Origin: Escherichia coli
GTDB lineage: Bacteria; Pseudomonadota; Gammaproteobacteria; Enterobacterales; Enterobacteriaceae
Length of the DNA stretch: 64,000 nucleotides
Assembly: GCF_044324875.1 (NCBI RefSeq)
Contig: NZ_CP172185.1
Reading direction: 5' to 3' (one strand)
The notes beneath the pieces were generated by a model, which saw nothing but the letters and a program-made list of their open reading frames with translations, was not told the origin of the DNA and ran no database searches. A program made the translations under genes and the position numbers. Positions 32,177 to 37,003 of this stretch are shown piece by piece (within the stretch, counting starts at the first letter, position 1; each line of letters starts with the position of its first letter).

Positions 32177-33355
32177 CTAAGCTTGTACTTTTATCTGTGC
32201 TGCGGCGTGCTTTGCGCGCTCAATCGCTTCATCAACACTCTCTGCAGTAGCCAGTGCCACCCCCAGACGACGGCTGCCATCAATTTCCGGCTTACCAAAT
32301 AAACGAATCTGCAAACCTGCGCCTACGGCATTCTGCACATTATCAAACGTGACATTCTCACTGGTCAGTTGTGGCAGGATAACGGCAGAAGCTGCAGGAC
32401 CATACTGACGGATCCCGCCAACCGGAAGTCCGAGAAAGGCTCGCACATGCAGGGCAAACTCCGAGAGATCCTGAGAAATTAACGTCACCATCCCGGTATC
32501 ATGTGGGCGAGGGGAGACCTCACTGAAAATCACCTCATCACCACAGACAAACAGCTCGACACCAAACAGACCATAACCGCCCAGTGCCAGCACCACTTTA
32601 CGGGCAATCTCCTGCGCACGTTCAAGGGCAAGCGGGCTCATTTGTTGTGGTTGCCAGGATTCACGATAGTCGCCATTTTCCTGGCGATGACCTACCGGTG
32701 CACAGAAATGGACGCCATCCACCGCGCTGACGGTTAGCAGGGTAATTTCGAAGTCAAACTTAACGACGCCTTCAACAATTACGCGGCCCGCTCCGGCGCG
32801 ACCGCCTTGCTGAGCGTACTCCCATGCTTGAGCAAGTTGCTCTGCAGAACGAATAAACGTCTGCCCTTTACCGGAAGAGCTCATCACCGGTTTAACAATG
32901 CAGGGATAGCCGATGTCAGCAACCGCCTCGCGGAAAAGGCTTTCGCTATCGGCAAAACGATAAGTGGAAGTGGGCAGCTGCAGCTCTTCTGCCGCCAGGC
33001 GACGGATACCCTCGCGATTCATCGTTAATTTCGTTGCGCGCGCGCAGGGGACAACATTCAGCCCTTCCTCTTCAAGTTGGATCAGCATATCGGTGGCAAT
33101 AGCTTCGATCTCCGGCACGATATAATGTGGTTTTTCCAGTTCAACCACACGGCGTAATGCATCACCATCAAGCATATTAATGACATGGGAGCGATGCGCG
33201 ACATGCATAGCTGGCGCGTCGGCATAGCGATCGACGGCAATCACCTCTACGCCGAGACGCTGACACTCGATTGCCACTTCTTTACCCAGTTCACCGGAGC
33301 CTAATAACATCACGCGAGTTGCTGCCGGACGCAGCGCAGTGCCTAATAACGTCAT
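32177..33355 (-). CDS. purT: Formate-dependent phosphoribosylglycinamide formyltransferase PurT
   Basis: 392-aa [47 protein letters not shown]...; ATP-grasp. Confidence 0.95.
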
Positions 33356-33392
33356 AACGAATATCCCCTGATTAATTCCGCGCGCAGTATAA

Positions 33393-33408
33393 ACGAAAAC
33401 GTTTGCGT
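33393..33408. promoter_or_regulatory. PurR operator upstream of purT
   Basis: ACGAAAACGTTTGCGT fits the PurR box consensus (A-G-AAAACGTTT-C-T palindrome). Confidence 0.6.
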
Positions 33409-33451
33409 GTGTCTTTATTGTTGATGTTGATTTCCCAACCGAGAAGAAATA

Positions 33452-33470
33452 TACTGTATAAAATCACAGT
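33452..33470. promoter_or_regulatory. LexA (SOS) box upstream of yebG
   Basis: TACTGTATAAAATCACAGT with CTGT-N8-ACAG, about 20 bp upstream of the yebG start. Confidence 0.7.
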
Positions 33471-33488
33471 TATTATGAGAGGCTGCAA

Positions 33489-33779
33489 ATGGCGGTTGAA
33501 GTTAAATACGTAGTCATTCGTGAGGGCGAAGAGAAAATGTCGTTTACCAGCAAAAAGGAAGCCGATGCTTATGACAAAATGCTTGATACGGCGGATCTGC
33601 TTGACACCTGGCTGACAAATTCTCCAGTGCAAATGGAAGACGAGCAACGTGAAGCCCTTTCGCTATGGCTGGCAGAACAAAAAGATGTGCTGAGCACCAT
33701 TCTGAAAACCGGCAAATTACCGTCCCCACAGGTCGTCGGTGCTGAATCCGAAGAGGAAGATGCCTCACACGCGGCCTGA
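33489..33779 (+). CDS. yebG: DNA damage-inducible protein YebG
   Basis: 96-aa ORF MAVEVKYVVIREGEEKMSFTSKKEADAYDKMLDTADLL... Confidence 0.9.
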   Translation: MAVEVKYVVIREGEEKMSFTSKKEADAYDKMLDTADLLDTWLTNSPVQMEDEQREALSLWLAEQKDVLSTILKTGKLPSPQVVGAESEEEDASHAA

Positions 33780-33797
33780 AGCAACTTGCGCTCCTGA

Positions 33798-34202
<405 letters not shown>

Positions 34203-34528
34203 TGGCTTCTGATAATTCGATTGACCGTTGGCGGATGCGGCGCGAATGCCTTGTCCGCCCCACAACGCACCACAATCGTAGGCCTGAGAAGACGCAACAG
34301 CGTCGCATCGGGCAATCAGCTTCAAACAGTGCCACTCAAAACGTCAAATTACTTTCACCTAAAATACCCTTATCACCTGATATACAGTGAATACCTTACC
34401 TGGCGCGAATTTCTTTGAATAACGGCCTACCGACCCGCTTATTTGCGCATCTTTTGTCTCGATATACATTTTCTGACATCCTCATCCGCTATGCTACAGG
34501 CACTAAAAATGGTTATTGAGGAGCAAAT

Positions 34529-35188
34529 ATGGCTAACTGGTTAAATCAACTGCAATCCTTGCTTGGGCAAAGCAGTTCTTCTGCCTCCTCGTCTGCGGAT
34601 CAGGGATTGGGCAAACTTTTAGTGCCAGGCGCATTAGGCGGACTGGCTGGGCTGCTGGTCGCAAATAAATCAGCACGTAAACTTCTTACGAAATATGGCA
34701 CCAACGCGTTACTGGTTGGCGGCGGAGCGGTCGCGGGTACGGTGCTGTGGAATAAATACAAAGATAAAATTCGCGCGGCGCATCAGGACGAACCGCAGTT
34801 TGGCGCGCAAAGTACGCCGCTGGATGAGCGTACGGAACGTTTGATCCTTGCGCTGGTCTTTGCCGCTAAAAGTGATGGTCATATTGATGCCAAAGAACGT
34901 GCGGCAATCGATCAGCAATTGCGTGAAGCCGGTGTGGAAGAACAGGGGCGTGTACTCATTGAGCAGGCAATCGAACAACCGCTGGATCCACAACGCCTGG
35001 CTACCGGGATTCGCAATGAAGAAGAGGCGCTGGAAATCTATTTCCTGAGCTGCGCGGCTATTGATATTGACCATTTTATGGAACGCAGTTACCTGAATGC
35101 ACTGGGTGACGCGCTGAAAATCCCCCAGGATGTTCGTGACGGCATTGAACGCGATCTCGAACAGCAAAAACGTACTTTGGCGGAATAA
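34529..35188 (+). CDS. yebE: Inner membrane protein YebE (DUF533)
   Basis: 219-aa [44 protein letters not shown]... Confidence 0.85.
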
Positions 35189-35351: not shown

Positions 35352-36521
35352 TTAAGCCGCAACCGTCTGTGCTACGGATTTATGCTGGCCTCCATGGGCA
35401 GAAACGACGAGTCCCGCCGCTTGTAATTCCAGTATGCCCTTGCGTTTGATGTTGAGCGCCGCGTTGATATCGCGGTCATGTTCAACTCCACACTCTGGAC
35501 ACTGCCAGATGCGCTTATGTAATGGCATCTCCGACATTTTGTGACCGCAGCAGTGGCAGGTTTTCGAACTGGCGAACCATTGATCCAGTTTCACCAGATG
35601 CACACCTTTCTCTGTTGCTTTGTATTCCAGTTTTGTGATGAATCCAGACCATCCAGCATCGCCTATCGCACGAGCCAGATGGTGATTTTTCATCATATTT
35701 GCCGTTTTCAATGTCTCGACAATTACCGCTTGGTTTTCGTCAACAATTGCGCGAGATAACTTGTGCTGGAAATCGGCACGGGCACTGGCTACCCGTTCGT
35801 GAACGGCTGCAAGTTGTATTCTGGCTTTGCGCCTGTTTGCGTTCCCTTTTTTCTTACGGGACAGTGCTTTCTGCTTCCGGCGAAGGTTGCGACTTGCATT
35901 GATTAGGTGGCGGGGACTGGCAATTTTATTGCCGTCCGATTTGATGACAAAATGCGCCAGCCCCATATCCAGCCCTGTCACATTTGATATCAGTGCAGGC
36001 TTTGCCGGCGCTTCCATCCCGTCGTCACAAAGTAACGACGCGTAGTATTTCCCGGTTGCGCTGCGGCTCAACGTGATACTTTTCAGCATTCCCGTAATTT
36101 CACGATGTAAACGCGCTTCAATCGGCAAGATTTTCGGTATTTTTATCGCACCATCAAGGACTTTTATGCCAACACAATGATAGCTCGATTGTCTGCCGTG
36201 TTTACTTTTAAAGGTAGGTTTACCTGCTTTCAGTTTCGGATTGAAAAAGTTAGAAAAAGCCACGTCGAGGTTAATTACCGCCTGCTGCAACGCAATAGAA
36301 TCATATTCTTTAAGCCATCCATACCGGCGGGATTTCTTCGCCACTGCAAGCAGTGGTTTGAGGTCTTTACGCGGGTTTAAATTTACGCGGTGCCGCTGGT
36401 AAGAATGTTTCTTGATATGCAGAGCTTTGTTGTACGCAAAACGCACTGCACCGAACTGGGCGTTGATAAATTCAGCCTGTTCTGGTGTCGGGTAGATGCG
36501 TACTTTTGTTGCTCTTAACAT
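35352..36521 (-). CDS. tnpB: TnpB (OrfB_IS605) RuvC-like putative RNA-guided nuclease
   Basis: 389-aa ORF; RuvC-like motifs TGLDMGLAHF, AVIVETLK and EHDRDINAALNI plus zinc finger CHCCGHK...CPECG; architecture typical of IS605/IS607 TnpB. Confidence 0.85.
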   Translation of the reverse strand: MLRATKVRIYPTPEQAEFINAQFGAVRFAYNKALHIKKHSYQRHRVNLNPRKDLKPLLAVAKKSRRYGWLKEYDSIALQQAVINLDVAFSNFFNPKLKAGKPTFKSKHGRQSSYHCVGIKVLDGAIKIPKILPIEARLHREITGMLKSITLSRSATGKYYASLLCDDGMEAPAKPALISNVTGLDMGLAHFVIKSDGNKIASPRHLINASRNLRRKQKALSRKKKGNANRRKARIQLAAVHERVASARADFQHKLSRAIVDENQAVIVETLKTANMMKNHHLARAIGDAGWSGFITKLEYKATEKGVHLVKLDQWFASSKTCHCCGHKMSEMPLHKRIWQCPECGVEHDRDINAALNIKRKGILELQAAGLVVSAHGGQHKSVAQTVAA

Positions 36522-36577
36522 AATCAGCGCTCATTGATATAATGCTTTTATTTTAACACTTTAGGTAAATATATCAA

Positions 36578-37003
36578 TTGAGTAATCATGATGATTTACT
36601 GGCGGGATTTCTCCGCAAACGACACAGTGTCAGTAAGCTGGTTGTGCACCTTATTTTTACGACAAAGTATCGACGCAAACTATTCGACAGTCAGATGATC
36701 GCTCAGTTGCGTGAGGCTTTTGGCTCCGCTGCGGCAAAGCTTGAATGCGAAATTATTGAGATGGACGGGGAGCCAGACCATGTACACCTGCTGGTTGCCT
36801 ACCCGCCAAAACTGGCGGTCAGTGTGATGGTCAATAATTTAAAATCGGTATCATCACGTTTGCTACGCCAGCAGAACGCGCATTTACGTATGCAGAGTAA
36901 AACGGGGCTTTTGTGGTCGAGATCGTACTTTGTCTGTAGCACCGGAGAGGCAACGATTGAAACGCTCAGAGCCTACGTTCAGAGTCAGTCAACACCTGAT
37001 TGA
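36578..37003 (+). CDS. tnpA: IS200/IS605-family Y1 (HuH) transposase TnpA
   Basis: 141-aa ORF with HuH motif HVHLLV and C-terminal Tyr region SRSYFVCSTGEATIE; ORF-track first codon is TTG and no in-frame ATG precedes the conserved N-terminus. Confidence 0.75.
   Translation: MSNHDDLLAGFLRKRHSVSKLVVHLIFTTKYRRKLFDSQMIAQLREAFGSAAAKLECEIIEMDGEPDHVHLLVAYPPKLAVSVMVNNLKSVSSRLLRQQNAHLRMQSKTGLLWSRSYFVCSTGEATIETLRAYVQSQSTPD

Follow-up and report, generated by a model that had tools for sequence, protein, structure and literature searches.

The promoters of ilvY and ilvC stand back to back, diverge, and are coupled to each other through supercoiling. The spacer between the divergent genes purT and yebG of Escherichia coli resembles divergent promoters of the ilvY/ilvC type in that its start sites are less than 100 bp apart and its -35 regions adjoin. 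In contrast to them, it lacks both a shared regulator and an overlapping operator and shows no evidence of coupling, each of its two promoters having its own repressor and its own regulon.

We analysed a stretch of 64,000 nucleotides, here called the window, from a non-K-12 E. coli. Its gene order from flhA to manX agrees with the annotation of strain MEI003, to which it is 100% identical over a 701-bp query (33100-33800). Reading the ORFs of the window places the purT/yebG spacer at 33356-33488 (133 bp), between two divergent genes:

32177-33355, minus strand: purT coding sequence (formate-dependent GAR transformylase), a 392-aa ORF annotated purT in E. coli genomes
33489-33779, plus strand: yebG coding sequence (DNA damage-inducible protein), a 96-aa ORF identified from E. 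coli annotation

Of 5426 complete E. coli genomes, 5425 match the 701-bp query across both ORFs, and their annotation names the genes purT and yebG (b1849 and b1848, respectively, in K-12). An earlier reading of the window made from its sequence only had described the two genes as divergent and about 130 bp apart, and the annotation and the length of the spacer both agree with it.

The locus can also be compared with the K-12 purT promoter and with the SOS promoter of yebG as known from E. coli. Three SNPs (33421, 33435 and 33443) separate the spacer of the window from that of K-12, all of them outside the two operator boxes and the promoter hexamers described below. As no SNP falls in a box or a hexamer, K-12 results on both sites transfer directly to the window. 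At purT, the 16-mer of the PurR operator, the -35 and the -10 are identical in the two strains and are placed alike with respect to the ATG and to the mapped start, and there is no functional difference between them, the window strain having an ISEc46-like element nearby. At yebG, the 20-mer TACTGTATAAAATCACAGTT is identical, lies 17 bp upstream of the ATG and overlaps the -10, and no difference was found. The ISEc46-like element, a member of the IS200/IS605 family, occupies 35352-37003 between yebE and ptrB. It carries, on the minus strand, a gene for a 389-aa TnpB/InsQ RNA-guided endonuclease (35352-36521) and, on the plus strand, tnpA (about 36578-37003). K-12 is without it, and ptrB there comes directly after yebE. 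An Rfam scan of the purT/yebG spacer returned no RNA family, and an inverted-repeat scan returned the PurR palindrome only, apart from trivial GC or AT palindromes. In the neighbouring yebF-yebE spacer, 34184-34260 and 34281-34332 gave weak Rfam naRNA4 matches of 29.4 and 26.3 bits, which fall short of the gathering score of 59.5 and are probably REP-type repeats.

Both operators, both promoters and both regulators of this exact spacer are already known and published, and the significance of the present analysis beyond correct annotation is small. We are highly confident that the 133-bp spacer holds two self-contained sigma-70 promoter/operator modules, set back to back and switching independently. 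They share the spacer only because purT and yebG are neighbours.

The purT promoter and its PurR operator

A promoter consensus scan of 33250-33900 gave exactly two sigma-70-like promoters, and the RpoD-holoenzyme genomic SELEX of Shimada 2014 reports the same hexamers as the scan for both. On the purT side, the elements are as follows:

33410-33415, minus strand: purT -35 hexamer AAGACA (promoter scan; Shimada 2014)
33386-33391, minus strand: purT -10 hexamer TATACT (promoter scan; Shimada 2014, which lists AAGACA-18-TATACT)
33379, minus strand: purT transcription start site (G), giving a 24-nt leader (Kim 2012 TSS table)
33393-33408, unstranded: PurR operator ACGAAAACGTTTGCGT, covering 16 of the 18 bases between the purT -35 and -10, its centre at -21.5 from the mapped start

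The start was taken from the Kim 2012 TSS table, in which it stands at K-12 v2 coordinate 1928881 with 17 reads and with an upstream sequence that reads ...AAGACACACGCAAACGTTTTCGTTTATACTGCGCGCG and ends ...TATACTGCGCGCG. For the conversion of coordinates, the K-12 v3 position equals 1964236 minus the window position, a relation which returns exactly the coordinates given for the PurR box in Cho 2011. The purT start lies seven bases past the -10 TATACT, and the -35 and -10 are separated by 18 bp. Because the start is mapped at 33379, the centre of the PurR box at -21.5 falls inside the purT promoter; the comparison with mapped K-12 start sites that the sequence-only reading had proposed as a check is thereby answered in its favour for purT.

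That reading had described 33393-33408 as a near-consensus PurR operator, and the description holds. The box departs from the perfect palindrome ACGCAAACGTTTGCGT (central CG) at a single position, and it is the only match to that palindrome at up to one mismatch in the 64 kb, where 0.01 would be expected. With a PurR matrix built from the 27 ChIP-chip motifs of Cho 2011 and applied leave-one-out, the box scores 24.5 bits, which is above all 27 training sites (range 12.0-23.2), is the top match in the window and exceeds the best score found in 200 random 64-kb sequences (22.9 bits). The exact 16-mer ACGAAAACGTTTGCGT lies under the PurR ChIP-chip peak at purT in Cho 2011 (PMC3159470), where the PurR occupancy of purT is 2.00 with adenine and 1.02 without, and where purT is among the genes that PurR represses directly.

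Both promoters of this spacer were also studied with Sort-Seq and mass spectrometry in Belliveau 2018 (PMC6003448, Fig. 5). That paper describes, for purT, the -35 and the -10 with a repressor site between them, which was seen only with adenine and fits the PurR matrix. According to the same work, this site enriches PurR in mass spectrometry with hypoxanthine and is lost in delta-purR. The box is a palindrome, overlaps the core promoter of a purine-metabolism gene and is conserved together with purT, and the site itself, the binding of PurR to it and the repression that follows are all grounded on data. Loaded by hypoxanthine or guanine, a PurR dimer bound between the purT -35 and -10 would exclude RNA polymerase, a case of simple repression.

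With the other operators of the pur regulon (purF, purL, purMN, purHD, purC and others), the purT site shares the 16-bp palindrome, the central CG and the overlap with the promoter. It differs from them in being among the closest to the consensus, outscoring all 27 other ChIP sites, and in sitting exactly in the spacer between the -35 and the -10.

The yebG promoter and its LexA box

On the yebG side, the elements are as follows:

33427-33432, plus strand: yebG -35 hexamer TTGATT (promoter scan; Shimada 2014), its TTGA about 70% conserved in 57 species
33450-33455, plus strand: yebG -10 hexamer TATACT (promoter scan; Shimada 2014), with a predicted start near 33462
33452-33471, unstranded: LexA (SOS) box TACTGTATAAAATCACAGTT, overlapping the yebG -10 and the predicted start, 17 bp upstream of the yebG ATG
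33477-33482, plus strand: yebG Shine-Dalgarno sequence GAGAGG, read from the sequence; GAGGCTGCA is conserved

The sequence-only reading had placed a LexA box at 33452-33470 (TACTGTATAAAATCACAGT). The box is confirmed, with the canonical LexA 20-mer reaching one position further, to 33471, and with a CTGT-N8-ACAG core, CTGTATAAAATCACAG, at 33454-33469. A bare CTGT-N8-ACAG core occurs once in the window against 0.60 expected, which is not significant alone, and the idealised LexA 20-mer at up to three mismatches has no match in the window. The idealised 20-mer misses the yebG box because the two differ at five positions; four of these belong to the degenerate spacer, and the fifth is the flanking base at the end. 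As these core and 20-mer tests left the LexA box undecided, they were replaced by leave-one-out matrices. With the LexA matrix, built from 17 motifs given in PMC3009722, the box scores 22.1 bits, about the training median (21.9), and is the top match in the window; the best score in 200 random 64-kb sequences was 18.2 bits. Position-weight-matrix scoring, the other check that had been suggested, thus ranks both boxes as the top matches of the window and above the best of the 200 random sequences.

The second-best LexA matrix match in the window, at 20.9 bits, is the known ruvAB SOS box CGCTGGATATCTATCCAGCA at 18191-18210, 47 bp upstream of ruvA (18257-18868), which was in the training set. Two further LexA-like matches, one at 1678-1697 inside flhA (14.7 bits) and one at 34535-34554 in the first codons of yebE (13.2 bits, without the CAG arm), lie within the maxima of the random sequences (13.1 +/- 1.9 bits) and were rejected as chance.

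The SOS promoter of yebG is documented in Lomba 1997, in Courcelle 2001 as cited in PMC11228462, in PMC3009722 and in Belliveau 2018. PMC3009722 gives the 20-mer as the LexA motif of yebG and reports that yebG is UV-induced together with yebF. In the literature, yebG is induced 4.4-fold by AZT and shows 9.7-fold lexA dependence, and a heterology index (HI) of 6.3 is given. Sort-Seq in Belliveau 2018 (PMC6003448) identifies RNAP and LexA sites at yebG and shows induction by mitomycin C. The box of Salmonella yebG likewise lies 17 bp from the ATG, a SNP swap inside it alters expression, and the gene is induced 41-fold by nalidixic acid. In the window, the core is embedded in a 20-bp A/T-rich, palindrome-like site that is conserved together with yebG, and this site and the LexA dependence of yebG are grounded on data. 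The earlier statement that a purine-repressed and an SOS-induced promoter stand back to back is upheld by the hexamers of the scan and by published experiments on this spacer.

The yebG -35 and -10 are separated by 17 bp, and the LexA box opens with the last four bases of the -10. Immediately before the LexA 20-mer, an alignment of 57 species shows the TA at 33450-33451 to be conserved to 90% or more. Judging from the sequence, the LexA box would span about -10 to +10 of the predicted yebG start near 33462. The Kim 2012 TSS table, which covers uninduced cells, holds only a distant 2-read signal for yebG. Belliveau 2018 places the yebG RNAP site 9 bp downstream of the Lomba 1997 prediction, which leaves an ambiguity of +/-9 bp in our reading. 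This 9-bp remark is compatible with TTGATT/TATACT if Lomba picked TTGCTG at 33418-33423. An alternative -10, TAAAAT at 33459-33464, fits one reading of "9 bp downstream" and was judged less likely: conservation is absent from its -35 position but present in TTGA and TATACT, which also match Shimada 2014. With either -10, the LexA box overlaps the yebG core promoter. A LexA dimer lying over roughly -10 to +10 would block initiation at yebG, and under SOS conditions RecA-stimulated self-cleavage of LexA would free the promoter, with induction of yebG-yebF as the expected outcome.

The Kim 2012 TSS table also lists a 10-read start at 33588 (K-12 v2 1928672), inside yebG, that is assigned to yebF. 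This suggests an internal yebF promoter downstream of, and separate from, the LexA-controlled promoter of yebG.

In one of the 5426 genomes, that of E. coli MS 21-1 (L083, 3600-3625 and 5485-5510), the ISL3-like element ISEc53 interrupts the yebG LexA box within its A/T spacer. The element carries a ClbS/DfsB-family gene and is accompanied by an 8-bp target duplication, ATAAAATC. The operator is destroyed in this strain, and yebG now lies about 1.9 kb from its promoter.

The two operators across enterobacterial species

A PurT search gave loci from 80 species of Enterobacteriaceae, Erwiniaceae and relatives, 79 of which were scored, the remaining one being cut 60 bp upstream of purT. In 57 of the 79 species, yebG is divergent from and adjoins purT, across spacers of 126-163 bp (mostly 130-139 bp). 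The other 22 have no adjacent yebG, and purT there usually faces yebE across 161-183 bp; these species, in which yebF is usually absent from this place as well, include Enterobacter, Kluyvera, Lelliottia, Trabulsiella, Pseudocitrobacter and others (L017, L025, L030 and L033 among the loci).

Whatever the neighbouring gene, all 79 species have a PurR box of at least 18.8 bits at a distance of 33-44 bp from the purT ATG, and the identical 16-mer is found in 63 of 80 regions (the 79 loci and the window). The same set of 80 upstream regions has TATACT or TATAAT as the purT -10 in all but one (79/80) and AAGACA as the -35 in 53, with or without an adjacent yebG. The resulting cassette, AAGACA-n-PurR box-n-TATACT (or TATAAT), does not change with the gene that faces purT, be it yebG or yebE, and its distance to the ATG is the same in the 22 species that have neither yebG nor the LexA box at this place. 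All 57 species with an adjacent yebG have the LexA box, which scores at least 16.6 bits and stands 13-19 bp away from the yebG ATG. No comparable box was found in the 22 species without one, the best match there reaching 15.9 bits and the median being 4.2 bits. Each operator follows its own gene, and the purT and yebG modules have been gained and lost independently of each other. This evolutionary independence, itself grounded on data, lends modest support to the view of bacterial promoter/operator units as portable and autonomous, even in tight back-to-back arrangements.

Within the alignment of the 57 spacers, four blocks are conserved, namely the purT -10, PurR box and -35; the TTGA of yebG; the run TATACTGTAT...ACAG; and the yebG ribosome-binding site. 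Conservation between the blocks is poor, and one such segment lies between the two promoters:

33416-33426, unstranded: 11-bp gap between the two -35 hexamers, not conserved in sequence and largely conserved in length

The distance between the centres of the PurR and LexA boxes is 59-63 bp in 53 of the 57 species, which sets the -35 hexamers about 9-13 bp apart in those species; the outliers have 55, 71, 71 and 93 bp.

Coupling and other readings of the spacer

The two boxes, said in the sequence-only reading to be about 45 bp apart, are separated by 43 bp edge to edge and by 61 bp centre to centre, and both -35 hexamers fall between them. Counted from the predicted yebG start, the PurR box is at about -61.5, outside the core elements of yebG; counted from the mapped purT start, the LexA box is at about -82.5, outside the core elements of purT. 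Neither operator touches the core of the other promoter, and the two promoters have no regulator in common. The suggestion that they may influence each other sterically finds no support in this layout, in the promoter-specific features obtained by Sort-Seq or in the independence of the two modules. In Belliveau 2018, the features reported from Sort-Seq across the spacer are only such promoter-specific ("directional") ones. Meta-analyses of stress responses have purT falling with the other pur genes and yebG rising with repair genes. From the absence of reported cross-features, together with the comparative data, we infer that there is no cross-talk between purT and yebG.

The opposing view would be that the purT and yebG promoters are functionally coupled, so that purine status and SOS status modulate each other's outputs, and we regard it as improbable. 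A polymerase or a repressor sitting at one promoter would then alter the activity of the other, and the possible routes are competition for upstream alpha-CTD contacts, bending by PurR at -61.5 of yebG, and supercoiling from divergent transcription. In its favour is the geometry: 11 bp lie between the -35 hexamers and about 83 bp between the start sites, and nominal polymerase footprints of -55 to +20 would overlap by about 28 bp and cover each other's -35. The operator spacing of 59-63 bp in 53 of 57 species, kept despite unconserved bases between the -35s, could hint at a constraint on spacing, and three of the four outliers exceed it by about 10, 10 and 32 bp, which is near whole helical turns. 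However, constant spacing could simply reflect few indels in a short segment that is mostly filled by the two promoters, and four outliers are too few for a test of helical phasing. We hold it very doubtful that the fixed spacing records selection for the mutual arrangement of two polymerases. Further against coupling, the Sort-Seq features reported over the spacer are promoter-specific, the purT cassette keeps its distance to the ATG where yebG and its LexA box are missing, expression surveys put purT with the pur regulon and yebG with the SOS genes, and yebG is missing from the main text of the PurR regulon paper. If coupling were real, SOS-driven firing of yebG would change the output of purT, or PurR occupancy would tune the basal leakiness of yebG, and nucleotide supply would be linked to the DNA-damage response at one intergenic region; nothing here indicates so.

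Still less credible, to the point that we give it almost no weight, is the idea that one or both boxes are functionless chance matches and that purT or yebG is regulated from elsewhere. It could draw on the minimal CTGT-N8-ACAG core being expected 0.6 times per window and on the five positions at which the yebG box departs from the idealised 20-mer. Nevertheless, the matrix scores of the boxes beat all 200 random 64-kb sequences, both boxes are conserved across families of the Enterobacterales, and both sites are backed by direct evidence from in vivo and in vitro work, with published ChIP-chip, Sort-Seq and expression data refuting the idea. We retain the reading of two promoter/operator modules that switch independently.

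Because binding of H-NS and of RpoS holoenzyme has been reported, regulation of the spacer extends beyond the two repressors. The H-NS binding is that marked within it by Shimada 2014. Shimada 2017 reports an RpoS-holoenzyme SELEX peak of 63-fold in the yebG/purT spacer and, in the 5' end of purT, the highest such peak of the genome, at 390-fold. These peaks (K-12 v2 1928846 and 1928972) correspond to about 33288-33414 of the window, and our scan of 33250-33355 gave no extra sigma-70-like promoter.
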